In this document: one piece after another, positions 3,534 to 50,210 of the stretch | Layout: every line of letters starts with the position of its first letter | Numbering within the stretch: the stretch's first letter is position 1 | DNA from: an uncultured Gammaproteobacteria bacterium | Lineage (GTDB): Bacteria > Patescibacteriota > Patescibacteriia > Magasanikbacterales > UBA922 | Direction: 5' to 3' | Assembly: GCA_964522405.1 (NCBI GenBank) | Contig: CAZFTR010000004.1 | Location: forward strand, 22,349 to 86,348 | Length of the DNA stretch: 64,000 nt | Notes under the pieces: model-generated | Databases searched by the model: none | What the model was told of the DNA's origin: nothing | Seen by the model: the letters and a program-made list of their open reading frames with translations, nothing else | Program-made: the position numbers and the translations under genes

Positions 3534-3554
3534 CGAACGACAAGGGGGAAGGAC

Positions 3555-3935
3555 GTGCATCGCGCTTTCAGACGTGAGCATTGCTCGGCCATATACCAGG
3601 GTGATATGGAAGTCGATCTCGGTCGTCTCACCCCGAGTGAGAGATTCGGCCTAGACGTCCTGTTGCGCCTGTTTCGTGGTCGGATCAAGATGAAGGATAC
3701 GGGCATGGGAAATTCAGCATTGGTCTTCCGCCTCTCGGAACTCCGCTGCAGAATGAACTCGAGAGGGCCGGATCTACAGGATCTGACCGTGGAGACAGGT
3801 CTGAACGGTCACATCACACTCTCGACCGGTGATCCGGAATCGGCTCATCGGATGCGCGTGGACTTCAGCGAACCGCCACCGGACGGCGATCATTCGCGCC
3901 ATCGGCGCGTGTTCCCGCCTGACTGGGCCGTGTGA
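3555..3935 (+). CDS. Hypothetical protein encoded in G+C-rich island A
   Basis: 126-aa ORF with GC3-rich codons (CGC, CTC, GAC) in an A+T-rich neighbourhood. An SD-like tract lies upstream, but only 2 nt from the GTG; the internal ATG at 3606 is an alternative start. No recognisable domain. Confidence 0.35.
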   Translation: MHRAFRREHCSAIYQGDMEVDLGRLTPSERFGLDVLLRLFRGRIKMKDTGMGNSALVFRLSELRCRMNSRGPDLQDLTVETGLNGHITLSTGDPESAHRMRVDFSEPPPDGDHSRHRRVFPPDWAV

Positions 3936-3972
3936 GTTACCCACGGTTCTAGTCCTTCGCTGTCCAAGCATC

Positions 3973-4005
3973 GCCCCTGGCGCTGGATTTATCCACGCCA
4001 GGGGT
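3973..4005 (+). terminator. G+C-rich hairpin closing island A
   Basis: CCCCTGGCG-ctggatttatcca-CGCCAGGGG, a perfect 9-bp stem, followed by ttcgccatttatat. Confidence 0.5.
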
Positions 4006-4058
4006 TCGCCATTTATATGGGGTATATAGAGCAACTATGGCACTACTACCAAATACCA

Positions 4059-7148: not shown

Positions 7149-7661
7149 ATGCTAGTGAACAGATCAGATCGCGGCTGGACTGCCGCCTTCACGGTCGGGA
7201 GCTTGCTCCTGATCGCGATGCTCGTTGTGGACTACACGGTTCATGACCTTAAAATGAGAGAGCTGCACCAGGCCGTCGTCACGGACTTCGACGAGTTGGT
7301 GCCGGGCATGTGCTACGGCATGGAGATCGAGAGCGGCAAGTTCCAGGTGGTCTGCATCCACCAGTCGCGGAACTGCCCGGACCCCAAGTCCGACGACTAC
7401 GGCGTGGTCAAGCCAAGCGAGTGCCGCCTCGAACGCCCCGAATGCATCGAGTCGGCCAAGGTCACCGAGTTCGGCGCCCTGCAGTACCCTCAGTGGGTGG
7501 TGGTTGGCGAGAGCTACGAGATCTCGGGAAGCCGCCACACCCTCGACCTCGACGACCAGGACTACTGCGTGTTCACGCCCCACAAGTGGCCTGAGCCGTC
7601 CGACGAGTGGGAGTGGCAGGACGTCATCGAGGACACCGGGGACTCCCCCGACGCGCAATAG
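7149..7661 (+). CDS. Hypothetical signal-anchored Cys-containing protein with acidic C-terminus (G+C-rich island B)
   Basis: AAAGGAAA SD at 7141-7148, then ATG 7149 or GTG 7155 (the ORF-track TTG at 7128 has no SD). Contains an N-terminal TM helix (WTAAFTVGSLLLIAMLVV) and six Cys, with GC3-rich codons. Confidence 0.45.
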   Translation: MLVNRSDRGWTAAFTVGSLLLIAMLVVDYTVHDLKMRELHQAVVTDFDELVPGMCYGMEIESGKFQVVCIHQSRNCPDPKSDDYGVVKPSECRLERPECIESAKVTEFGALQYPQWVVVGESYEISGSRHTLDLDDQDYCVFTPHKWPEPSDEWEWQDVIEDTGDSPDAQ

Positions 7662-7792
7662 CGCAATCCGGCATCCTGCCGGGGCAGCGCGAGATGTGCG
7701 AGATTTTGACGACGAACGACGCCGCCCATCCCGAACTGCTTGAGCATCTAAAATCTGGAAATTCAAGCGGAGGCGGGATGTGCCGCTTAATT

Positions 7793-10886: not shown

Positions 10887-10965
10887 AGAAAAATTAAGGT
10901 TAAAAATATGTAATAAAGTATAGATTAGAAAAAACCTTTCGTCAAATTTGGATAAATTTCCTTTG

Positions 10966-10999
10966 CTGCACCCGAATCGCCGAAGCGAGACGGGTGCAG
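10966..10999 (-). terminator. Hairpin at the 3' end of the island C gene
   Basis: CTGCACCCG-aatcgccgaagcgagac-GGGTGCAG, a 9-bp G+C-rich stem. Confidence 0.4.
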
Positions 11000-11048
11000 C
11001 GTGAATCAGTAAAAAATCCTGGTGAAAAACCCGGTAGGACCTCGAGTT

Positions 11049-11354
11049 CTAGATGAAGTCGTGCTTGCGACACTTGCGCACCATGTGCAGCGCGCCGTCG
11101 ATGCGCATTGCCGGAATGCCGAGCGCGTAACGCACAACCTTACAGCCGACTTCGCCCAACTGCTCGTAGGCGAGAGCGATCCTGCTCTCCTGACCAAAGA
11201 TCCACTTCACAGCCGAGCACTCGAGAGCAGTGACCCTCTCATTCGCCGTCCCGATGGCCATGATTCCGTCGAGCGTCAACTCTCCGATGACCACAGCGCA
11301 GTCTTGAACCACCAGCTCGCCCATGAACAGAGCACTTCCCAATACTTCTTTCAT
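11049..11354 (-). CDS. Hypothetical protein of G+C-rich island C (101 aa, begins MKEVLGSALFMGELVV...)
   Basis: ATG at 11354 is preceded by GGGGGG and by TTGACA-N16-TATTAT. The longer track start at 11369 lies upstream of the SD. GC3-rich codons. Confidence 0.45.
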   Translation of the reverse strand: MKEVLGSALFMGELVVQDCAVVIGELTLDGIMAIGTANERVTALECSAVKWIFGQESRIALAYEQLGEVGCKVVRYALGIPAMRIDGALHMVRKCRKHDFI

Positions 11355-11385
11355 TGGCCCCCCGACCAATTATTGATCCAGGGAA

Positions 11386-11518: not shown

Positions 11519-12823
11519 CTAAATTGCTTCACCTAGGGGTTTGGGCTTTTCTCCTGTTTCTTTCATTACTCCCTTCTCAAACAAAATTGCACCAAGAACA
11601 GTCACAAGAATAACACCAAGAAGTGCAGCTGCTGCCATAGTTTCACTGAGTACATTGTTGGCAATTGCAACTGCTACGAAAACTAAACCAACTTCACCAC
11701 GAATTGACATTGCATAACCAACAAGTTTTCCTTCGTTGCGGTCCTTGAATAAATATTTAACAATATATTTTCCATAGAATCCAAGAACTGTAAATATAAT
11801 TGCATAAATCCAAGCTTTTGGAGACATAATTGCTTCACGGGTAAGCATGGTTCCAATACTTACCAGGAATCCACCAACAAAGATATGTATATATCCCTCG
11901 ATCTTTTCCCAAACTTCATGTTTGATCTCATTATCAACTTTTGAAAGTACCACACCAATACCAAAGGCACCAAGAACAGGCTCAAGACCAACCACAGCTG
12001 CAAGTGCTCCAGCAATAATCAAGGCACCAAAGAAAAATCTAGTATAAGGCCCTGTTGTAGTTTTTACGTAATGCTTATCAAGATATTTGGCAATCTTATC
12101 AGCAACACCCATACTCCACATTAGATAAGCTCCACCAAAGAAAGCAAGAACAGCAATAGCAAGCCAGATAAGACTCATAGCTTCTAGGTGACCTTGAGAT
12201 AATTTTGCAAGCACAGTTAGAACCAGCACACCAAGAATATCATCAATCACAGCAGCCCCAACAATTCTGTTTCCCATGTTTGTACTAAGTTTTCCAGCAG
12301 CTTTTAGAGCTTCTACTGAAAGACCAACTGATGTTGCTGTGAAAATACCACCCAAGAAAATAGCCGGAAGCCATTCCATACCAAGAGCATAATGTCCTAG
12401 AAGCGCAAAAGTAACCAATGGAATAAAGACACCACCAAAAGCAACCAGACTGGCAATCCCAATATTTTTCTTGAGAAGTTCCATGTCAAAATGAAGTCCA
12501 GCTTCAAATAAAATAAAAAGCACACCAGCTAGGCGAGCAATTTCAACTCCGTGAGCATATGGATCAAGAACACCCATAGCTGCAGGACCAGCAATAATAC
12601 CCATTACAATCTTACCTGCCATTGGTGCAATACCAAATACTTTGGCAAGTCTTCCACCAAAAGATGCAAAAACAGCAAGAAATGCAATATCAATCAAAAT
12701 CGGCATGATGGTATTGATCTCATGATGATGACTGTGCAACAAGGCCTCGCGCAAATAGTGCAGACCAATTGCGAATACCACCACTTCTATAGTTAGAAGT
12801 GCTAGTGTCTTCAATTTATTCAT
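11519..12823 (-). CDS. Cation:proton antiporter (CPA2 / Na+/H+ exchanger family)
   Basis: 434 aa with about 12 TM helices; architecture and motifs are Kef/NapA-like. Confidence 0.75.
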   Translation of the reverse strand: MNKLKTLALLTIEVVVFAIGLHYLREALLHSHHHEINTIMPILIDIAFLAVFASFGGRLAKVFGIAPMAGKIVMGIIAGPAAMGVLDPYAHGVEIARLAGVLFILFEAGLHFDMELLKKNIGIASLVAFGGVFIPLVTFALLGHYALGMEWLPAIFLGGIFTATSVGLSVEALKAAGKLSTNMGNRIVGAAVIDDILGVLVLTVLAKLSQGHLEAMSLIWLAIAVLAFFGGAYLMWSMGVADKIAKYLDKHYVKTTTGPYTRFFFGALIIAGALAAVVGLEPVLGAFGIGVVLSKVDNEIKHEVWEKIEGYIHIFVGGFLVSIGTMLTREAIMSPKAWIYAIIFTVLGFYGKYIVKYLFKDRNEGKLVGYAMSIRGEVGLVFVAVAIANNVLSETMAAAALLGVILVTVLGAILFEKGVMKETGEKPKPLGEAI

Positions 12824-13038
12824 AAATTTTTCCTAATTGTCATCCCGAGCGAAATGCTAGAGAGTCAAGAGATCTCCTTTTCAAAGAATATTTTCCTTAA
12901 AAGGGTGATTCCTCCACTCTATTCAAGATAACCTATAAATTATATTAAATTACGACTGCAATATTATACAGTTAAATAGCTTAAAAATCAATACAATTTG
13001 GGGATAAAGCCAAGTTACAAAATTGTGAAAAATGCTGA

Positions 13039-13067
13039 TTTACAAGTAAGTAGAAATATGCTAGGAT
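13039..13067 (+). promoter_or_regulatory. Candidate promoter of island D (TTTACA-N17-TAGGAT)
   Basis: Lies upstream of the GGGAGG SD at 13087-13092. Confidence 0.35.
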
Positions 13068-13102
13068 ATTTCAGTAATCTGGAACCGGGAGGAAAAAACC
13101 GG

Positions 13103-13849
13103 ATGTTTCTTTTGGAATTCACGAAAAAGCACCCCTACCTGGTAATCGCCAGTGTGGCTCTGACCACTCTGCTGATTGCTGCCATGGTGATGATTCAGCA
13201 GAGGATCGATACCAGCAAGGAGCGGATCGCGACTGCATGTCTCGAGAGAATCGCCAACCCCTGCACCTTCTACAAGGTCTCAGACTCGGGCTACACCTGT
13301 GAGAAGTGGCACGTCGCCGACGGCACTGATTGCAAACAGAGCGCCTGCATGACAGGCGACTGTGTCTGCAAGGACGGCAAGCCGACTTCCGACTCCTGGC
13401 GGGACTGCTCTTCGCCGAGCGATCCCTGTCGGGTCGACGTTTGTGTTCCTGACGACGCTGAAGAGCTGGGCTACAGATGCGTGCCCGGGGTGCATGAGGA
13501 CCGGAATCGCAAGATCTGGCTCGATCACAAGCCCGACTTCACCCCCTGCCTGGACGATGGCATCTGCATCGGACGTACCTGCATTGGCCCCGAAGGTCGC
13601 GTGCTGGCTCCACTACCGATCAAGTTCACCGAAACCAAGGCTCGGGACATGCCGACAGGCTTCGAGCTCAATCTCTGCGGGAACTGCCATCGCTACAGCT
13701 ACGACTGGAACTACAGCGGTCCTGTCACCTGTGGCAGCTGCCACCTGGAAGGCGCCGACATGCTCAACCGATCATCCGATAGACTGCTCTGGCATCTCGA
13801 GATCGAGGAAGGGCTGCCGGCCAAAGAGTTCCTGGGGGAGGTGATGTAA
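13103..13849 (+). CDS. Signal-anchored Cys-rich protein with two CxxCH motifs (putative dihaem c-type cytochrome), G+C-rich island D
   Basis: GGGAGG lies 10 nt before the ATG at 13103 (the ORF-track start at 12998 lies in A+T-rich DNA upstream of the SD). One TM helix, then 20+ Cys including CGNCH and CGSCH. GC3-rich codons. Confidence 0.4.
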   Translation: MFLLEFTKKHPYLVIASVALTTLLIAAMVMIQQRIDTSKERIATACLERIANPCTFYKVSDSGYTCEKWHVADGTDCKQSACMTGDCVCKDGKPTSDSWRDCSSPSDPCRVDVCVPDDAEELGYRCVPGVHEDRNRKIWLDHKPDFTPCLDDGICIGRTCIGPEGRVLAPLPIKFTETKARDMPTGFELNLCGNCHRYSYDWNYSGPVTCGSCHLEGADMLNRSSDRLLWHLEIEEGLPAKEFLGEVM

Positions 13850-13978
13850 TGCCGCAGACACGAGCACGAGGGCCACCAAGTAGAGGCGCCGGCACCAGCC
13901 CCGGCGGGAGCATGTCAACTGCTGCTCTGCACCGGCTGGCGACTCTCTTATTATTTTAATTTTAGAATGATGAGAAAG

Positions 13979-14007
13979 AAAAAACTCGCTTATTGCGAGT
14001 TTTTTTA
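13979..14007. terminator. Bidirectional intrinsic terminator (end of the atp operon)
   Basis: AAAAAACTCGC-ttat-TGCGAGTTTTTTT. Confidence 0.6.
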
Positions 14008-24332: not shown

Positions 24333-24459
24333 ATTAATCCTTAAATGTAATCAAATTATACAGTAAATTAAAATTTAATGAAATTTTTGACAAAATAATT
24401 AATCTTAAATACTATAAGTTATAGAGACCAAGTCGGCACCCCCGGCAAGGAAAATAGCC

Positions 24460-24588
24460 GTGAGCAAATTCAGAGATAATCCCAAACTGTCGGACAAGCC
24501 TCCTGTGTTCACCATCGAGTGCAATCACTGCTTCGTCCGGATCATGATCTGGGCCAATAGGTGTTGGTACTGCGGCCGCGCTCGATGA
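24460..24588 (+). CDS. Small zinc-ribbon protein (42 aa) in G+C-rich island E
   Basis: AGGAAA lies 7 nt before the GTG. Product is MSKFRDNPKLSDKPPVFTIECNHCFVRIMIWANRCWYCGRAR, with CxxC...CxxC. The overlapping minus-strand track ORF 24412..24603 lacks an SD. Confidence 0.3.
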   Translation: MSKFRDNPKLSDKPPVFTIECNHCFVRIMIWANRCWYCGRAR

Positions 24589-24632
24589 GTACCTGTGAAC
24601 CAAGCAAGAACATCAACCGCTCACCGGCGACC

Positions 24633-24707
24633 AAGCTCGTTCGCGTCGCCAACAATATTTTAAATTCAAATTTTAAAATATTGTTGGAGGAATACGCGAA
24701 CGAGCTT
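24633..24707. repeat. 75-nt nested palindrome at the edge of island E
   Basis: A 13-bp G+C-rich outer stem (AAGCTCGTTCGCG / CGCGAACGAGCTT) encloses a 14-bp A+T-rich inner stem (AACAATATTTTAAA-ttcaaat-TTTAAAATATTGTT). Confidence 0.6.
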
Positions 24708-24715
24708 TTGGTTAC

Positions 24716-24743
24716 AAAAAAAGCACCATGAAATGCTTTTTTT
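24716..24743. terminator. Bidirectional intrinsic terminator
   Basis: AAAGCA-ccatgaaa-TGCTTT flanked by A- and T-runs. Confidence 0.55.
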
Positions 24744-25296: not shown

Positions 25297-25373
25297 ATTA
25301 ATCTATTGCTTTAATATTTAAAATGTGATATTTTTAGCGCTGTAATCCAGACTCGAGACAGGAGAAAGCCATC

Positions 25374-25706
25374 ATGGCAAAAGGAGACAAGAATCGCGGT
25401 CTGCGGCGCCGACGGCGGCGGCAGGAGGCCAAGAAGCAACGTCAGCTGCGGCAGGCGATCGCCACCATGGAGGAGCGACGCGGCGAAGAGCCTCAGTGGA
25501 CCTGCGGTGCCAACATCGGTACCCATCGAGAGCCCAAGCCCTGCGGCACCAAGGTGCTGATGACGAAGGGCAGCTGCCCCAAAGGCCACACCTGGCCGAA
25601 GATGACGGGCGGCAAGGCTCGCGAGCAGGCCGGCGTGGATCACGGCCGCGGCCACGGCTACCGACCCTACACACCGCCCCGCGACGACTACGACTACCCC
25701 TGGTAG
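25374..25706 (+). CDS. Hypothetical highly basic protein with a Cys/His cluster (G+C-rich island F)
   Basis: AGGAGA lies 8 nt before the ATG. N-terminal RRRRRRQEAKKQRQLRQ, then C-x6-H...C...C-x3-H. GC3-rich codons. Confidence 0.4.
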   Translation: MAKGDKNRGLRRRRRRQEAKKQRQLRQAIATMEERRGEEPQWTCGANIGTHREPKPCGTKVLMTKGSCPKGHTWPKMTGGKAREQAGVDHGRGHGYRPYTPPRDDYDYPW

Positions 25707-25744
25707 GCAGAAGGAGGCTTCAGAACCTACGATCGCACCCCCAC

Positions 25745-25776
25745 CCCCGTGTCTGTTCTCGAGAAGACGCGGGGGC
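25745..25776 (+). terminator. G+C-rich hairpin closing island F
   Basis: CCCCCGTGTCT-gttctcgag-AAGACGCGGGGG (one mismatch), followed by cagacagacttttctt. Confidence 0.45.
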
Positions 25777-25818
25777 AGACAGACTTTTCTTAAATTTGAG
25801 TTTTAAAAAACTCTTTTT

Positions 25819-27327
25819 TTATTTTTCTAATCTTTTAAATAATATTTCTCCTTTTTTTATTATAGCATCTTTTTGCAATCTTCCCCACTCTTTTTCCAAC
25901 TCCAGCGCTTCTAATTTTTCTGAATCAATTCCAAGCTGAGATAAAATCTTTTTTGCTGATTCCGGGATTACTGGAAGAAGTGCAATTGCAATATGACGAA
26001 GTGCTTCTGCAAGCTGATATAGTAGCTCTGAAATATCTTCACCATTTTTTGCCTTTTCCCATGGTTTTTGATTTGAAATCTTTTCATCACATTTTGAGAC
26101 TAAGCTATTTATGTGATTTATCAAATCATCGAATTTGTATTGATTAACTAAGTCAGTGTAGTATTTCCAAAACTTATCTAAATCGAAAATATCTTGAGCT
26201 ACTTCTGGCACACTACCATCACTATACTTCTCAAGCATAGTCAAAATCCTCGAAGTCAAATTCCCAACTCCATTTACCAAGTGCGCTGTATAAAATTCCT
26301 CAAATCTGGAAATACTAAAATCACCATCATCATGAGCCGGAATTGCCCCAAGAAGATAATACCTTACTGCATCTATCCCGTATTTCTGGACAGTTTCATA
26401 AGGATCAACTACATTTCCAACGCTTTTACTCATTTTTTGACCTTCTGAAGTTATAAATCCATGAATAAATACTTGTTTTGAAGGTTCTACACCTGCTGAA
26501 AGCAGCATAGCTTGCCACATAGCGGTCTGCTGGCGAAGGTTGTCTTTTCCGGCAACCTGAACTCCCGGCCAAAAATCTGCAAAATCGCCCTTTTCATTCG
26601 GCCAACCCAGTGTTGAGATATAGTTAATAAGCGCGTCAAACCAAACATACATAACATGATCAGGATCTCCAGGAACATCCACTCCCCAAGGCATTTTCTC
26701 TCGCAATCTGGAAATACTAAAATCCCTTAAACCTGATTTAACAAATGTTTTTATTTCATTGAAACGATAATCTGGAATTACAAAATCTGGCTGATTTTCA
26801 TAAAGCTCAAGTAATTTATCCTGGTATTTACTAAATAGGAAAAAATAATTTTCTTCATCAATTAATTCAATTTCATAGGTGGGATGAATTGAACATTTTC
26901 CATCAACCAGTTCTGAATCTGTTTTCTCTAGTTCACAACCCACACAATACTTTACTTGGTATTTTCTTTTTTCAATATCTCCATTTTTATTGCATAGTTC
27001 CCAAAAATGTTGTGCTGCTTTTTTGTGATCTGGATTAGTTGTTTGAATAAATGTCAAACCATTCCAAAGCCCAAGAAGATTTTTCAGATCTCTAAACTTA
27101 TCAGCATATTCATCTACATATTTCTGTGTTTCCACTCCTGCCTCCTCGGCATTTCGGTAAATCTTAAGTCCATGCTCATCTGTTCCAGTATTAAAAAAGA
27201 CTCTCTCTCCTAAAAGTTCATGATAGCGCGCAATGACATCTGCCTGAATAATTTCTAAAGCAAAACCGATATGAGGCTTGGCGTTCACATATGGAAGTGT
27301 TGTTGTGATGTAGAAGTTTTTTGGCAT
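25819..27327 (-). CDS. metG: Methionyl-tRNA synthetase
   Basis: HIGH-type motif PHIGFALE, KMSKS, and a Zn knuckle CVGCELEKTDSELVDGKCSIHP. Confidence 0.9.
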   Translation of the reverse strand: MPKNFYITTTLPYVNAKPHIGFALEIIQADVIARYHELLGERVFFNTGTDEHGLKIYRNAEEAGVETQKYVDEYADKFRDLKNLLGLWNGLTFIQTTNPDHKKAAQHFWELCNKNGDIEKRKYQVKYCVGCELEKTDSELVDGKCSIHPTYEIELIDEENYFFLFSKYQDKLLELYENQPDFVIPDYRFNEIKTFVKSGLRDFSISRLREKMPWGVDVPGDPDHVMYVWFDALINYISTLGWPNEKGDFADFWPGVQVAGKDNLRQQTAMWQAMLLSAGVEPSKQVFIHGFITSEGQKMSKSVGNVVDPYETVQKYGIDAVRYYLLGAIPAHDDGDFSISRFEEFYTAHLVNGVGNLTSRILTMLEKYSDGSVPEVAQDIFDLDKFWKYYTDLVNQYKFDDLINHINSLVSKCDEKISNQKPWEKAKNGEDISELLYQLAEALRHIAIALLPVIPESAKKILSQLGIDSEKLEALELEKEWGRLQKDAIIKKGEILFKRLEK

Positions 27328-27332
27328 AATTA

Positions 27333-27361
27333 TTGTTTAGTGTGTTTTTTTATGATATAAT
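27333..27361 (+). promoter_or_regulatory. Plus-strand promoter-like element TTGTTT-N17-TATAAT pointing into G+C-rich element G
   Basis: The hexamers overlap the region just upstream of the metG start codon, on the opposite strand. Confidence 0.3.
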
Positions 27362-27374
27362 CTTTGTTGCGATG

Positions 27375-27600
27375 TGCATCAATTGATGTGGGCGATTGTC
27401 GGTTACTCCAGTTTTCATAATTGTTGGTTCTGCCAACTTCCGATCGGGTTGAAGCCTGGACCGTCCTGGAAGGATCCCGAAACAAGCTCCGTCGCTGTCA
27501 GGGGACAAAAACCGCAAGCTCCTCACGCTTGCCGACCATGAATTCAGAACATCTACGTCGGATCGCCGGTAGAGAGTAGGTTGCGTCCCCTGGCATCCAA
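27375..27600. other. G+C-rich ~225-bp element G between rsmI and metG with nested stems; candidate structured RNA, no convincing ORF
   Basis: Stems: CAGGGGAC (27499-27506) with GTCCCCTG (27586-27593), enclosing GCAAGC-tcctcac-GCTTGC and CCGAC...GTCGG; also GTTGG-ttctg-CCAAC. The only ORFs lack an SD. Confidence 0.3.
27505..27532 (-). terminator. Minus-strand intrinsic terminator inside element G (candidate rsmI terminator)
   Basis: On the minus strand: GCAAGC-gtgagga-GCTTGC followed by GGTTTTTG. Confidence 0.4.
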
Positions 27601-27602
27601 CT

Positions 27603-28271
27603 CTACTTGCCAACCACTACAACAAACTCGCCTTTTTCTTTAATTTTTAAATTACCGATCTCACTAATTTTTCCGCGATAAACTGTTTCAAATTTCTTGG
27701 TTAATTCTCGACAAATACAAATTTTTATTTCTGGATCAAGCACTTTTGATAAATTATCAAGTGTTTTTTTAATTCTATGACTTGACTCATATAGCGCAAC
27801 AGTATATTTCTGATTAGACAACTCTTCAAAATATTTATTTCTTGCTTTTTTGTGGGGTGGAAATCCCAAAAAAACAAACTTATCTGTTGGAAATCCTGAA
27901 ATACTCAAGGCTGTAGTCACTGCAGAAACTCCCGGAATAGGGATTATTTGCAAATCTTCAACATTATTTAACAGATCTTCAATTAATTTATTTCCCGGAT
28001 CGCTTATCCCCGGAGTTCCAGCATCAGTAACAAGAGCTAGATTCAAACCCTGATTTAATAATTCTGAAATCTCTTTTATTCTCTTAGTAGAACTATGCTG
28101 ATGATAAGTTTTTACCTTAGTATCTATCTGATAATGGTTTAAGAGCTTTCTAGTTACTCGAGTATCTTCACATAAAATAAAATCTACGCTTTTAAGAGTA
28201 GCAATGGCTCGAAGAGTGATATCTGCCAAATTACCAATTGGCGTAGAAACTATGTATAAAATGGGATTCAT
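27603..28271 (-). CDS. rsmI: 16S rRNA (cytidine1402-2'-O)-methyltransferase RsmI
   Basis: Tetrapyrrole-methylase fold and N-terminus LYIVSTPIGNLADITLRAIATLKSVDFILCEDTR. Confidence 0.85.
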   Translation of the reverse strand: MNPILYIVSTPIGNLADITLRAIATLKSVDFILCEDTRVTRKLLNHYQIDTKVKTYHQHSSTKRIKEISELLNQGLNLALVTDAGTPGISDPGNKLIEDLLNNVEDLQIIPIPGVSAVTTALSISGFPTDKFVFLGFPPHKKARNKYFEELSNQKYTVALYESSHRIKKTLDNLSKVLDPEIKICICRELTKKFETVYRGKISEIGNLKIKEKGEFVVVVGK

Positions 28272-28371
28272 AGTGCTTAGTTTAGCAAAGAAAAGCTAAA
28301 TTTGCAAACAAATTTATTTCGATTATAGGCTGATAGTTTTTTAATATAAATTATGATATAATAATCTCAAT

Positions 28372-30654
28372 ATGAAAATATCAAATAAAAAGTTATTGTT
28401 TTTTGTCATTACAGTTGGCCTTTTTTTGCCAATTTCAAAAGTATTTACAGCAGAATTCAATCCCAACCACATAATCAGTGATCAGGATATGCAGGATTGG
28501 AAAAGTATGGGTCGTGGAGAAATCCAGGCTTTTTTGAAAAACCGAGGTCCATTTTTGGCCAAATTTATTACCAAAAATCTAGAAGGCAAGAAGAGAAGAG
28601 CAGCTGACATTATCTACGAAGTTGCCAAGGAATATAAAATAAGTCCGAAATATATTCTGGTAAAGCTCCAAAAAGAACAAAGTCTAATCACAGCAAAAAA
28701 CCCAACCAATTACCAACTAAACTATGCTACAGGTTATGGAGTATGTGATGATTGTGATACTGATGATCCAAATGTTTCAAAACATTCAGGATTTGCCAAG
28801 CAAGTAGACTCAGCAGCAGGAATTATACGCTGGTACTATGAAAATTTTGAAAAAGAAAATTGGATCAAGAGAGATAACACCGAATACCAGATCGATGATC
28901 AGCTTGTTACTCCGGCAAATTTGGCAACTGCTTTTCTGTATACCTACACTCCTCATCTTCATGGAAATAAAAATTTTTGGAAACTATGGCAACAATGGTT
29001 TGATCAGGTCTATCCAGATGGAAGTATTTTAAAAGGTGAAAATGAATCTAATATTTATGTTATCAAAGATGGCAAGAAAAGCGCTATCAAAAGCATGTCT
29101 GTACTGATCTCAAGATATGATCCAAAATCCATAATTACTGTACCGGTTAGCGAGCTAGCTAGGTATGAAAATGGACCTGAGATAAAATTTGCTAACTTTT
29201 CTTTGTTAAAAATTTCTAATAAATACTATTTAATAAATTTTGATGAATTGCGACCTTTTAAGGACTATGATGTTATTCGGAAATTAGGTTATCATCCAGA
29301 TGAGATAATCGAGGCCACTGGAGAAGACAAAGAAAATTTCAAAATCGGGGCCACAATCGAAGAAAGTGAACAATATCCTTTTGGAAGAATCATAAAAACA
29401 GATTCAGGACAAATTTATTATATAAACCAAGGACAGTATCATGTAATTGCAGATAAATTAATTGCCCAAAAGAAATATCCACAACTAATGATTGAAAAAG
29501 GATCTGCAAAATTACTCAAGGGACTTACTCGTGGCAATTCTGTTTTATTTCCTGATGGAGTTTTAATAGGAAATGATCTTACTAAGATGATTTATGTTAT
29601 AGAAAATGGATCGAAACGTCATATCACTTCAGAAAAGGTATTTAATGGACTAGGTTATAAATGGTCAAATGTAATTTGGGCAAGTGATTTTGTTTTAAAT
29701 CTTCATAAATTTGCAGAACCTGTCTACTTAAAAGAATCTGCCAGTCCAGCTGTTAAAGATGATTTTGTACTAACCTCAGCAAAATATCAACCAGTAGATT
29801 ATGATGCACCCAAGCAAACTGTTCCTATTGAAATAAATAGCAGAGGAAAAGTTCTCGCCACCTCAAAGGAAGATACAAAATATATTGGCGAAAAAACCTT
29901 TAATACTGGAATTTATACTTATATAGCAGCAGATTTTGAAACCGGGGAAATACTTGCCGGCAAGAACATAGATGTTATTCGACCAATGGCATCCTTTACA
30001 AAAGCAATGACGGCTCAGGTTTTGTTTGACGCTGGAATTGATATAGAAGCTAGCTCAACATATGATGCCTACACTCAAAAATCAGGTCATCACCGATATA
30101 GAATTGCGCACGGAGAATCAGTCAAAAATGACGATCTATTAAAAGTATTTTTAGCAATTTCACATAATACTCCTGGAAATATTCTGGCAAGCAATGTCGG
30201 TGGGGCTGAAAATTGTGTAAAAAAAATGAATGCCAAACTAAAGGAATGGGGTCTGGTTAATACTTATTTTGAGGATACTCATGGTCTTGGACTCAAAAAC
30301 CAGACAACTGCTCGAGATTACTTGTATATATTTAAAAATGTACTACAAGACCAGAGAATTCTGGATTATATGGGTGAAAAAAGATTTTCATATGTAGAAA
30401 CCGTTGATAAAGACTGGCAACCAAACCATAGTGGAGCACATAGTAATACACTTATCTTGCAAAATCATGCTAATTTTGAAATACTTTCTAGTAAGACCGG
30501 TTATCTATATGAATCTGGCTTTAATCTGGCAAACCTAATAGAGAGAAAAAGTGATGGCAAAAAATTTATTGTCATTACTATGGGTGAACCAGACTATAAC
30601 AATCGTCTTTATAATGCCAAAAGATTTGCTAACTGGGTTGTCAAAAATTTCTAA
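28372..30654 (+). CDS. Secreted multidomain protein with a C-terminal D-Ala-D-Ala carboxypeptidase (peptidase S11/PBP5-like) domain
   Basis: Signal peptide; SxxK motif in ASFTKAMTAQVLF; SxN- and KTG-like elements (SKTGYL). Confidence 0.65.
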   Translation: MKISNKKLLFFVITVGLFLPISKVFTAEFNPNHIISDQDMQDWKSMGRGEIQAFLKNRGPFLAKFITKNLEGKKRRAADIIYEVAKEYKISPKYILVKLQKEQSLITAKNPTNYQLNYATGYGVCDDCDTDDPNVSKHSGFAKQVDSAAGIIRWYYENFEKENWIKRDNTEYQIDDQLVTPANLATAFLYTYTPHLHGNKNFWKLWQQWFDQVYPDGSILKGENESNIYVIKDGKKSAIKSMSVLISRYDPKSIITVPVSELARYENGPEIKFANFSLLKISNKYYLINFDELRPFKDYDVIRKLGYHPDEIIEATGEDKENFKIGATIEESEQYPFGRIIKTDSGQIYYINQGQYHVIADKLIAQKKYPQLMIEKGSAKLLKGLTRGNSVLFPDGVLIGNDLTKMIYVIENGSKRHITSEKVFNGLGYKWSNVIWASDFVLNLHKFAEPVYLKESASPAVKDDFVLTSAKYQPVDYDAPKQTVPIEINSRGKVLATSKEDTKYIGEKTFNTGIYTYIAADFETGEILAGKNIDVIRPMASFTKAMTAQVLFDAGIDIEASSTYDAYTQKSGHHRYRIAHGESVKNDDLLKVFLAISHNTPGNILASNVGGAENCVKKMNAKLKEWGLVNTYFEDTHGLGLKNQTTARDYLYIFKNVLQDQRILDYMGEKRFSYVETVDKDWQPNHSGAHSNTLILQNHANFEILSSKTGYLYESGFNLANLIERKSDGKKFIVITMGEPDYNNRLYNAKRFANWVVKNF

Positions 30655-38390: not shown

Positions 38391-38419
38391 TTGACAAACT
38401 GATTTTTTTGAGTATACTT
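38391..38419 (+). promoter_or_regulatory. Consensus promoter TTGACA-N17-TATACT of island H, immediately divergent from the Mur ligase start codon
   Basis: Same hexamers as the island B promoter; 38391-38396 and 38414-38419. Confidence 0.45.
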
Positions 38420-38424
38420 TTGGC

Positions 38425-38634
38425 ATGCGGTCTATGAAGTACGCACTCCCGATTAAGTTCGGGGATCTGCCAATGTGGTCGCGGTTCCAGTTCAGCGGAA
38501 CCTCGCGCTGGATCAAGACTGGTCACAAGTCCGCTGCGACGCTGACACCGGCGCCTCGTAGCTCCACCTTCTCCAACTCCTGTGGCGCGCCGCGCCGAGT
38601 GGATAGGTGCACGACCGTCTTCCCCTGCATCTAG
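38425..38634 (+). CDS. Questionable small ORF (69 aa) in G+C-rich island H
   Basis: It follows the consensus promoter but has no SD, and the product is low-complexity and S/R/T-rich. The island may instead be noncoding. Confidence 0.2.
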   Translation: MRSMKYALPIKFGDLPMWSRFQFSGTSRWIKTGHKSAATLTPAPRSSTFSNSCGAPRRVDRCTTVFPCI

Positions 38635-38676
38635 GGACACCTGATCCGTCTCTCGAAGCATCAATGATCGCCGCTG

Positions 38677-38700
38677 CCGGGGGTTCTTCGGAACCCCTGG
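38677..38700. other. Very stable hairpin with a UUCG tetraloop at the distal edge of island H
   Basis: CCGGGGGTTC-ttcg-GAACCCCTGG, 10 bp with one G·U pair, and no flanking T-run. Confidence 0.5.
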
Positions 38701-38777
38701 CAAAACTCATAATTGAACTAATCTCTAGATAAAATCTAGAGATTTTTTATCACAATTTAGCTAAATTTGCAATAGAT

Positions 38778-42121: not shown

Positions 42122-42194
42122 GGTCCGGTAGCTCAGCTGGTAGAGCAGCAGCCTTTTAAGCTGATGGTCGTGGGTTCGAGCCCCACCCGGATCA
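42122..42194 (+). tRNA. tRNA-Lys (anticodon UUU)
   Basis: 73-nt cloverleaf with acceptor GGTCCGG/CCGGATC, GTTCGAGCC T-arm and anticodon loop CTTTTAA. Followed by an AAAACTCTGCAT-tatg-CAGAGTTTT terminator. Confidence 0.85.
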
Positions 42195-49840: not shown

Positions 49841-50059
49841 ATGGTTGTCACCATCATCCAAGTAGTAATGGTTGTTCTCATGTTTCTGGCCGGCCTCTGT
49901 CTGATCATTGATGGCGCGCTCCGGGTTTTCAAGCCCAGCCTCAGCCACAGGCAGATGATTCCTCGAGCCGACTACTGGAAGCAGCGCATGGCAGGACTGA
50001 TCGAGATGGCTGTTGGCTCTGCCCTGCTCGCCATCCTGCTGACCATTGCACTGGTCTGA
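49841..50059 (+). CDS. Small two-TM membrane protein (72 aa) in G+C-rich island I
   Basis: GAGGAG lies about 6 nt before the ATG at 49841 (the ORF-track start at 49808 lies upstream of the SD). Product is MVVTIIQVVMVVLMFLAGL...LLAILLTIALV. GC3-rich codons. G+C-rich hairpins GGCTGCG/CGCAGCC follow at 50080-50101. Confidence 0.45.
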   Translation: MVVTIIQVVMVVLMFLAGLCLIIDGALRVFKPSLSHRQMIPRADYWKQRMAGLIEMAVGSALLAILLTIALV

Positions 50060-50210
50060 AACATGAAACAACTGATTCGGCTGCGCCGCAGACGCAGCCT
50101 CGCTCATTCTGGGGCTTTCTCCCCACCAACCACAACAAGGAGGTGAGGACGAACTCTGCACTCGTCCCTCCGAATATTTTCAGTAGTTATAATGCAAATT
50201 GAGGAGTATT

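Follow-up and report, generated by a model that had tools for sequence, protein, structure and literature searches.

Between rsmI and metG, in the patescibacterial DNA analysed here, lies a short stretch of G+C-rich sequence, island G, that carries no credible gene, belongs to no recognised RNA or protein family, has no counterpart at the same junction in relatives and shares its architecture with other islands of the same genome. Our preferred reading, which we hold tentatively and at somewhat less than an even chance, is that island G is a 'moron-like' insert without an open reading frame (ORF) and without a plus-strand terminator, being either a cassette that is truncated or in decay, or an orphan RNA unit of recent origin. 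Noncoding DNA of foreign composition (about 207 nt at 54% G+C) has been inserted into a normally tight rsmI–metG junction, and probable transcription from a TTGTTT-N17-TGaTATAAT element (27333-27361) would give rise to an orphan plus-strand noncoding RNA. Since the operon junction never had a native terminator, this plus-strand transcript would read antisense into rsmI, extending unterminated into the 3' end of the gene, and on the minus strand a weak hairpin would at most partly uncouple rsmI and metG, which are co-transcribed neighbours in relatives. Throughout, 'the window' is the whole 64-kb stretch of DNA that was analysed, and positions are counted from its first nucleotide.

Table 1. 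Features of the rsmI–metG junction and of island G
Feature	Position	Strand	Basis
metG (methionyl-tRNA synthetase), 502 aa	25819-27327	minus	Pfam PF09334 at 2e-90
rsmI (16S rRNA cytidine-1402 2'-O-methyltransferase), complete, 222 aa	27603-28271	minus	Pfam PF00590 (TP_methylase) at 6e-35; homologues named RsmI
rsmI–metG intergenic spacer, 275 nt, 48% G+C	27328-27602		ORF map, Pfam, composition
G+C-rich core of island G, 207 nt, 53.6% G+C	27396-27602		composition
Promoter-like TTGTTT-N17-TGaTATAAT	27333-27361	plus	read in the sequence; own promoter scan
Second promoter-like site, TTGTGA-N16-TGgCATAAT	27303-27330	plus	promoter tool scan
Weak candidate metG promoter, TTGATG-N19-TATCAT or N17-TATATC	27352-27382	minus	own scan
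Terminator-like hairpin downstream of rsmI	27504-27532	minus	terminator scan
Candidate three-way junction	27496-27595	plus	inverted repeat I2, MFE z
Stem CAGGGGAC / GTCCCCTG, extending to an 11-bp helix	27499 / 27585; helix 27496-27506 / 27585-27595		
Stem GCAAGC / GCTTGC	27514 / 27527		
Stem CCGAC / GTCGG	27532 / 27557		
Stem GTTGG / CCAAC	27423 / 27433		
Stem TCGGG / CCCGA	27444 / 27476		

Composition and lineage-specific insertion

The flanks of island G are chromosomal housekeeping genes, syntenic with metagenome-assembled genomes (MAGs) of Magasanikbacteria. In alignment with its homologues, RsmI runs to their C-terminal end; its stop codon, TAG, is at 27605-27603 on the minus strand, and the core of island G begins directly after this native stop codon. 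The G+C fraction is 0.489 over 27333-27600 and 0.536 in the core at 27396-27602, against 0.363 for the window; rsmI and metG themselves stand at 33-35%, compared with 53.6% in the core, and the metG-side part of the spacer (27328-27395) is A+T-rich at 31% G+C. All 207-nt windows that reach at least 54% G+C in the 64-kb window fall within nine G+C-rich islands, of which island G is one, and its composition is clearly beyond chance. The original prediction had described a G+C-rich noncoding element between rsmI and metG, and all the features that it named were found where it had placed them.

The closest relatives of MetG come from Candidatus Magasanikbacteria and other Patescibacteria MAGs (57-73% identity, in genome and metagenome collections), and the nearest relative of RsmI among the 5.8 billion proteins searched is 71% identical. 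Exact protein look-ups of metG, rsmI and P0122 returned no record. With identities of at most 73% for MetG and 71% for RsmI, the collections searched thus hold no close relative of the organism.

Of 160 related metG loci, 89 have rsmI as the immediate upstream neighbour of metG in the same orientation; their spacer has a median of 59 nt and a lower quartile of 17 nt, and rsmI and metG are often directly adjoining or overlapping. None of these 89 rsmI–metG loci contains the sequence of island G (0/89), and blastn, nhmmer and tblastx searches of the island against all 160 loci detected no homologue. Nor was there a match to an exact 24-mer of island G in metagenome contigs, to two of its 20-mers in viral contigs, or to the island by blastn in plasmids and phages. 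A few relatives (L004, L006, L019 and L084) have rsmI–metG spacers of 250-370 nt, which are unrelated in sequence to island G and to each other; a leader shared by three of these long spacers (L004, L006 and L019) was considered and rejected, there being no sequence similarity and no Rfam match. As the spacers of relatives are short and without island G, sequence comparison identifies the island as a lineage-specific insertion at a site that varies between genomes and not as a leader conserved upstream of metG.

Within the window island G occurs only once. A miniature inverted-repeat element (MITE) or insertion sequence (IS) remnant was also set aside, given short repeats at chance level only, the single copy and the lack of terminal inverted repeats in the other islands.

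Promoter-like sites and the class of G+C-rich islands

The plus-strand promoter-like site consists of TTGTTT (27333-27338), a 17-nt spacer and TATAAT (27356-27361), with a preceding TG that gives TGATATAAT at 27353-27361. Taken as a sequence match, it corresponds to the sigma-70 extended -10 form (TGnTATAAT, with a -35 element optional at 17 nt), and the predicted start, at about 27367-27369, would direct transcription away from metG, into island G and antisense to rsmI. As a -35 element TTGTTT matches at 3/6 positions only, so that the site is not listed by the promoter tool scan. The same TGATATAAT recurs at 28354, ahead of a neighbouring gene of 760 aa that appears leaderless and whose ATG, at 28372, follows 10 nt downstream. 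This recurrence lends plausibility to the TTGTTT-N17-TATAAT promoter pointing away from metG that had been read here originally, and we consider it a plausible real promoter. Against our preferred explanation as a whole stand the poor -35 element, the frequency of TGNTATAAT in the window, which is at chance level (5 against 4.6 expected), and the lack of a plus-strand terminator.

Two further sites lie close by. Since the second plus-strand site is derived from metG coding sequence, being the reverse complement of metG codons 1-8, it may be fortuitous; the same motif occurs in the relative L006. The candidate metG promoter on the minus strand scores below the threshold of the promoter tool and overlaps the plus-strand -10 inside a near-palindromic AT-rich stretch.

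The nine islands occur at about one per 7 kb, and they are grouped as a class by composition and architecture, not by homology. They have no common sequence, no enriched k-mer and no terminal inverted repeats; that island G has no sequence or motif in common with the other islands also counts against the explanation we prefer. Islands A, G and H each have the 8-mer CCCCTGGC close to their 3' ends; it was tried as a shared element and rejected, a single 8-mer common to three islands being below the 3.3 expected.

Every island (9/9) adjoins a sigma-70-type promoter-like site that points inward, and for 8/9 the site is directed opposite to the flanking minus-strand housekeeping genes. Perfect TTGACA-N16-18-TAnnnT sites number 11 in the window, six of them at island edges (islands A, B, E, H and I on the plus strand, C on the minus strand) and one more before tRNA-Lys, with the inward-facing edge zones covering, by our estimate, less than 1% of window positions. 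The distance from promoter to island body is 35-65 nt in island G and 0-126 nt in the others. Most islands end in a hairpin, adjoining a terminator of the A-tract/stem/T-tract kind. Seven have coding periodicity and a third-position G+C content (GC3) in the range 0.65-0.87, that of native genes being about 0.25, and Shine-Dalgarno-like motifs stand before island ORFs, for example AGGAG 9 nt before the ATG at 25374, GGGAGG before the ATG at 13103 and GAGGAG before the ATG at 49841, while the ORF of island H appears leaderless. Among native genes, 3/47 have even a 4-nt motif of this type. Island E, also without an ORF, is strongly folded on the plus strand (z -7.2). Island G is the smallest of the nine and the only one to lack an ORF, a terminator and significant folding together.

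The island proteins are themselves orphans in the searches made: the island D protein matched only itself among 5.8 billion proteins, the island B protein had no database match, and islands B and F had no relatives in viral contigs. Contigs from two SRA runs that are independent of each other (SRR31802802 and SRR8146441) contain island D and both of its junctions at 100% identity, and this island is therefore not an assembly artefact. Related MAGs carry analogous G+C-rich islands, 6/9 of those examined having an inward promoter-like site; in the islands of L001, L004, L011, L099 and L127 the promoter is opposite to metG, and in 3/5 it has a perfect TTGACA. Our literature search found nothing on G+C-rich intergenic islands in the candidate phyla radiation (CPR) or Patescibacteria, nor on either of the two SRA runs.

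These observations bear on the reading of island G as inert, untranscribed foreign or junk DNA, brought in by illegitimate recombination and bearing promoter-like, terminator-like and stem motifs that are chance matches within an AT-rich flank and a G+C-rich body. The promoter tool scan found 6 promoter-like sites where 6.5 were expected, a chance density, TGNTATAAT is likewise at its chance frequency, the island folds at chance level with a hairpin at z = +0.37, and its sequence is not conserved, all of which agree with inert DNA. Such a reading leaves unaccounted for the inward edge promoters at all nine islands and the strong enrichment of perfect TTGACA sites there, a geometry into which island G fits, and G+C-rich DNA should erode in a genome of 36% G+C unless it is recent or maintained. 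We regard inertness as rather unlikely, though as a serious competitor to the moron-like insert.

Folding of the predicted plus-strand transcript

The stems listed in Table 1 had been put forward as a multi-branch set, and a structured small RNA (sRNA) was named as a possibility. All of the stems exist at the positions given for them, but jointly they do not go beyond chance: against dinucleotide shuffles, the minimum free energy (MFE) of the whole spacer gives z = -0.65 on the minus strand and -0.90 on the plus strand, and that of the core -0.51 and -0.68. The predicted plus-strand transcript, taken as 27368-27650, has z = -0.66, and the left 100 nt fold more weakly than shuffles (z >= 0).

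One part of the island departs from this pattern. The candidate junction, in which the 11-bp closing helix surrounds the GCAAGC/GCTTGC hairpin and a second hairpin, gives z = -3.6 for the plus strand and -1.2 for the minus strand when 27494-27598 is folded; one pair of the closing helix is T·G as read on the plus strand and would become A·C if the minus strand were read. A fine scan singled out just the 105-nt window framing this helix as unusual (27492-27596, plus strand, z -3.54). Since the junction window was picked post hoc, around the longest stem, this value is to be read beside 852 random windows from the same sequence, about 1.8% of which reach z <= -3.5. The 11-bp helix is also absent from the MFE structure of the full predicted transcript. 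We grade the fold signal of the junction (z -3.5) as marginal and treat the junction, of about 100 nt, as the sole candidate structured module of island G. A single-sequence covariance model built on it and run over 63 sources recovered only itself and one misplaced match, in L028 at E = 0.09.

Were island G a functional structured sRNA, acting in trans or as a cis-antisense RNA, it would be transcribed from the plus-strand promoter with 27496-27595 as its core. The perfect extended -10, the lack of an ORF, the local fold confined to the plus strand (z -3.5 to -3.6) and a transcript that would run antisense to the rsmI 3' end are all in keeping with such a role, and the strong fold of the ORF-less island E suggests that RNA-only islands may exist. 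Set against them are the near-random fold of the full predicted transcript, in whose MFE structure the junction is missing, the weakly folding left 100 nt, a search for a plus-strand terminator that found none, the lack of a homologue in the loci, contigs, plasmids and phages searched, and the lack of an Rfam family match. As a global fold no better than shuffles and one post-hoc window do not sustain a structured sRNA, the original prediction is unsupported on this point, and we hold a functional sRNA to be unlikely.

The minus strand and the proposed metG leader

The minus strand had been read as an intrinsic terminator of rsmI followed by a long metG leader. The pattern of the former is there, in that a stem at 27532..27514, of 6 bp (GCAAGC/GCTTGC, with 4 G-C pairs) and a 7-nt loop, is followed by GGTTTTTGTC, with a GG spacer between the stem and the U5 tract. 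Its strength is another matter: the hairpin alone reaches about -10 kcal/mol, a stability that shuffles equal (z = +0.37), and the terminator scan returned 2 overlapping matches where 0.8 were expected, so that the hairpin is at best a weak terminator-like element. A long leader or cis-regulator of metG is not supported, the leader region being unstructured (z +0.19 on the minus strand) and relatives having a short spacer from which the sequence is absent.

Searches for known RNAs agree. All 4227 covariance models of Rfam 15 were run over the window at gathering thresholds and over 27200-27750 at E <= 10. The former scan matched tRNA-Lys at 42122 only, which is also the only tRNA or tmRNA that ARAGORN finds in the window, with none in island G; the latter returned only a fragment of STnc320 at 18 bits against a gathering score of 50. 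The Rfam comparison proposed with the original prediction thus produced no known leader or sRNA, the kind of match that it had named as telling against it. Its remark that a T-box consensus is lacking is borne out, as the best match to the T-box core AGGGTGGNACCGCG has 5 mismatches on either strand and RF00230 has no match at E <= 10.

The idea that island G acts on the minus strand, as a terminator of rsmI together with a regulatory leader of metG (a riboswitch, T-box or attenuator), draws on the hairpin and U5 tract 70 nt past the rsmI stop, on the roughly 175 nt from hairpin to metG ATG and on the T-box control of metG or metS in many Firmicutes. It meets a weak hairpin, an unstructured leader region, a metG promoter candidate that is weak only, a T-box core with at least 5 mismatches and no match to the T-box or any other leader in Rfam at E <= 10. 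In relatives, moreover, rsmI mostly abuts metG without such a leader, and where the spacer is expanded, in L004, L006 and L019, its sequence is unrelated and without Rfam matches. We consider a minus-strand regulatory role quite improbable.

Coding potential

The claim that island G contains no credible ORF is confirmed on several counts. The 3-nt periodicity of the core is flat (chi-square 0.8, p = 0.9965), while among control pieces of 207 nt all those from island ORFs gave p <= 0.028 and 6/7 from metG gave p <= 0.006, the seventh giving 0.08. Pfam found no match in island G ORFs or in six-frame translations, the plus strand of the island has no pair of Shine-Dalgarno motif and start codon, and none of ten candidate products (0/10) was present by exact look-up in a collection of 15 billion proteins. 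A phmmer search with the 87-aa ORF of island G against 1.8 billion proteins matched only giant repetitive proteins, whose scores are repeat-inflated, being sums of many weak repeat alignments. Sliding windows likewise detected no local frame signal; a coding cassette in decay should retain some residual periodicity of frame, and the absence of it even locally counts against that form of our preferred reading.

That island G encodes a small protein, either a 55-aa plus-strand product of 27374-27541, possibly leaderless, or a 52-aa minus-strand product from TTG 27508, is very improbable: both ORFs exist, apparently leaderless starts are seen in island H and for the gene at 28372, and a Shine-Dalgarno-like GAGGAG lies 10 nt upstream of TTG 27508, but this GAGGAG is part of the hairpin loop, the TTG falls within the U tract, G+C is flat over the three codon positions (0.54/0.54/0.52 and 0.51/0.51/0.49), and the periodicity, Pfam, look-up and phmmer results all speak against translation.

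Significance of the island class

Island G alone matters little, being a singleton for which neither structure nor conservation nor function could be demonstrated, and it is not to be advanced as a candidate riboswitch or sRNA family. The main lead is the class to which it belongs, that of G+C-rich orphan transcription units with consensus promoters and Shine-Dalgarno motifs in A+T-rich, Shine-Dalgarno-poor Patescibacteria. In its boldest form, which we think fairly unlikely, the nine islands would be chromosomal 'morons' of Magasanikbacteria-like Patescibacteria, genome-unique and placed mostly antisense in the spacers of housekeeping genes, with island G an RNA-only member that modulates the rsmI–metG operon through its unterminated antisense transcript. 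If true, this would amount to an undescribed genome habit of having orphan high-G+C mini-units with their own consensus sigma-70 promoters and, in the coding ones, Shine-Dalgarno motifs that the genome otherwise lacks. Should the island pattern prove general, it would bear on the gain and expression of accessory genes in ultra-small episymbiotic bacteria, on the origin of their orphan genes and on the tolerance of insertions into operons.

Comparison with known systems

T-box and other leaders of aminoacyl-tRNA synthetase genes (RF00230) resemble island G in their upstream position and in the terminator-like hairpin of the upstream region. They differ in that island G lacks a T-box sequence, the architecture of a specifier loop and an alternative antiterminator, its hairpin is 175 nt from the metG ATG with unstructured sequence between, and the element is missing from relatives.

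Klein, Misulovin and Eddy reportedly used G+C-rich noncoding islands, in 2002, to locate genes for structural RNAs in genomes rich in A+T. Island G is similarly G+C-rich, ORF-free and promoter-preceded in an A+T-rich genome. The signal of such islands works because the RNAs concerned are conserved and strongly folded, whereas island G is not conserved, folds no better than shuffles and has no Rfam family.

Divergent transcription from symmetric -10 elements is said to have been described by Warman et al. in 2021, with a canonical arrangement of 18 bp. Beside the metG start, the plus-strand -10 hexamer TATAAT (27356-27361) overlaps a -10-like TATCAT on the minus strand (27357-27352) in near-palindromic AT sequence, an arrangement of this kind, but the predicted starts of island G would be about 23 bp apart and not the canonical 18 bp. 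A plus-strand transcript of island G would also resemble a cis-antisense RNA, in being antisense to rsmI.

The closest parallel to our preferred reading, the moron-like insert, comes from phage. Morons are extra DNA between genes, of deviant G+C and with their own promoter and terminator (Cumby et al. 2012, PMC3594210), and form independent add-on transcription units in prophages, first described in HK97/HK022 (PMC3594210). Island G differs in lying in a housekeeping operon of a Patescibacteria chromosome, not in a prophage, with no phage matches and no homology to any known moron gene, and the lack of an ORF and of a promoter-strand terminator makes the resemblance a partial one. Like a moron, it is extra DNA of deviant G+C between genes that are adjacent in relatives, and it has what may be its own promoter, of sigma-70 type by sequence; the other islands, which also have a terminator and a single ORF, come closer still, F and D for example having a promoter and a terminator around a protein-coding gene.

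Composition and orientation of the islands

The G+C content of the nine islands (A-I, lettered along the window) is 50-61%, against 36% for the genome, and no sequence kinship was found among the nine, which are mutually unrelated. A predicted inward-pointing promoter of sigma-70 type lies at the edge of all nine. The window holds 11 perfect TTGACA-N16-18-TAnnnT sites, of which six fall at island edges. Eight of the nine islands run counter to the housekeeping genes on either side. Island D, together with both of its junctions (12361-14002), is present at 100% identity in two Logan contigs, L161 and L162, that come from separate SRA runs (SRR31802802 and SRR8146441), so a single-assembly artefact does not explain the islands.

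Islands A, G and H have the 8-mer CCCCTGGC in their terminal stems, and the window contains five copies of it where 0.4 would be expected. Its sharing is nevertheless probably due to chance, because one 8-mer common to three islands was observed, fewer than the 3.3 that island shuffles predict.

Positions of islands and associated features (window coordinates unless a related metG locus, L001-L143, is named)
Feature	Position	Remarks
Island A	3534-4010	G+C-rich
Island B	7170-7786	G+C-rich
Island C	10965-11367	G+C-rich
Island D	13129-13947	G+C-rich
Island E	24424-24650	G+C-rich
Island E unit	24387-24716	plus strand; promoter-like site and predicted RNA
Island F	25337-25784	G+C-rich
Island G	27396-27602	G+C-rich
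Island H	38422-38701	G+C-rich
Island I	49886-50172	G+C-rich
CCCCTGGC	3974, 3997 (minus), 27587, 38694
Island ORF starts	3555, 11354 (minus), 13103, 25374, 49841	SD-like motif
Island H ORF start	38425	apparently leaderless
-10/start region, 760-aa gene	28354-28374
-10/start region, island H ORF	38391-38428
Island, L001	6263-6603	inward promoter-like site opposite to metG operon
Island, L004	7170-7468	inward site opposite to metG operon, perfect TTGACA
Island, L011	7812-8109	inward site opposite to metG operon, perfect TTGACA
Island, L099	6175-6491	inward site opposite to metG operon, perfect TTGACA
Island, L127	599-974	inward promoter-like site opposite to metG operon
Island, L143	4619-4815	inward promoter-like site in same direction as metG operon
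Expanded rsmI–metG spacer, L004	3722-4000
Expanded rsmI–metG spacer, L006	3608-3907
Expanded rsmI–metG spacer, L019	3749-3964
Expanded rsmI–metG spacer, L084		

Protein-coding and RNA-like islands

The island ORFs encode orphan proteins and have a GC3 of 0.65-0.87, compared with ~0.25 in native genes; they also carry Shine-Dalgarno (SD)-like motifs, whereas even a 4-nt motif of this kind is found in only three of 47 native genes. The island D protein combines a TM helix with a Cys-rich domain, and no relatives of it or of the island B protein were found among 5.8 billion proteins. In the rsmI–metG–cvpA operon, three consecutive spacers each hold one island (G, F and E). Island F, which lies between metG and cvpA, genes that are adjacent in relatives, encodes a basic, zinc-ribbon-like orphan protein of 110 aa (ATG at 25374, SD AGGAG); a terminator hairpin of 12 bp (25750-25781) closes the island.

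Island E has no coding periodicity and matches no Rfam family. Its TTGACA-N17-TACTAT site (24387-24415) precedes a predicted plus-strand RNA (24422-24716) that is far more stable than its shuffles (folding-energy z = -7.2) and is closed at the 3' end by a long, nearly perfect hairpin (24633-24707). On these folding predictions, island E is a better structured sRNA candidate than island G, for which the original prediction had raised that role.

A -10 hexamer stands 7-10 nt before the start codon both of the island H ORF and of the gene for a 760-aa protein with a D-Ala-D-Ala carboxypeptidase domain (ATG 28372); this genome may commonly have mRNAs with little or no leader.

Islands and expanded spacers in relatives

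Related Magasanikbacteria-like contigs carry G+C-rich islands of their own, unrelated in sequence; the predicted transcripts of two of them give folding z values of -2.8 (L004) and -5.1 (L127). In a few relatives (L004, L006, L019 and L084) the rsmI–metG spacer extends to 250-370 nt with mild G+C enrichment, that of L004 including a terminator-like hairpin (3747..3724) read in the direction opposite to metG. These expanded spacers show no sequence kinship with island G or with one another, which suggests that the rsmI–metG junction is prone to insertion.
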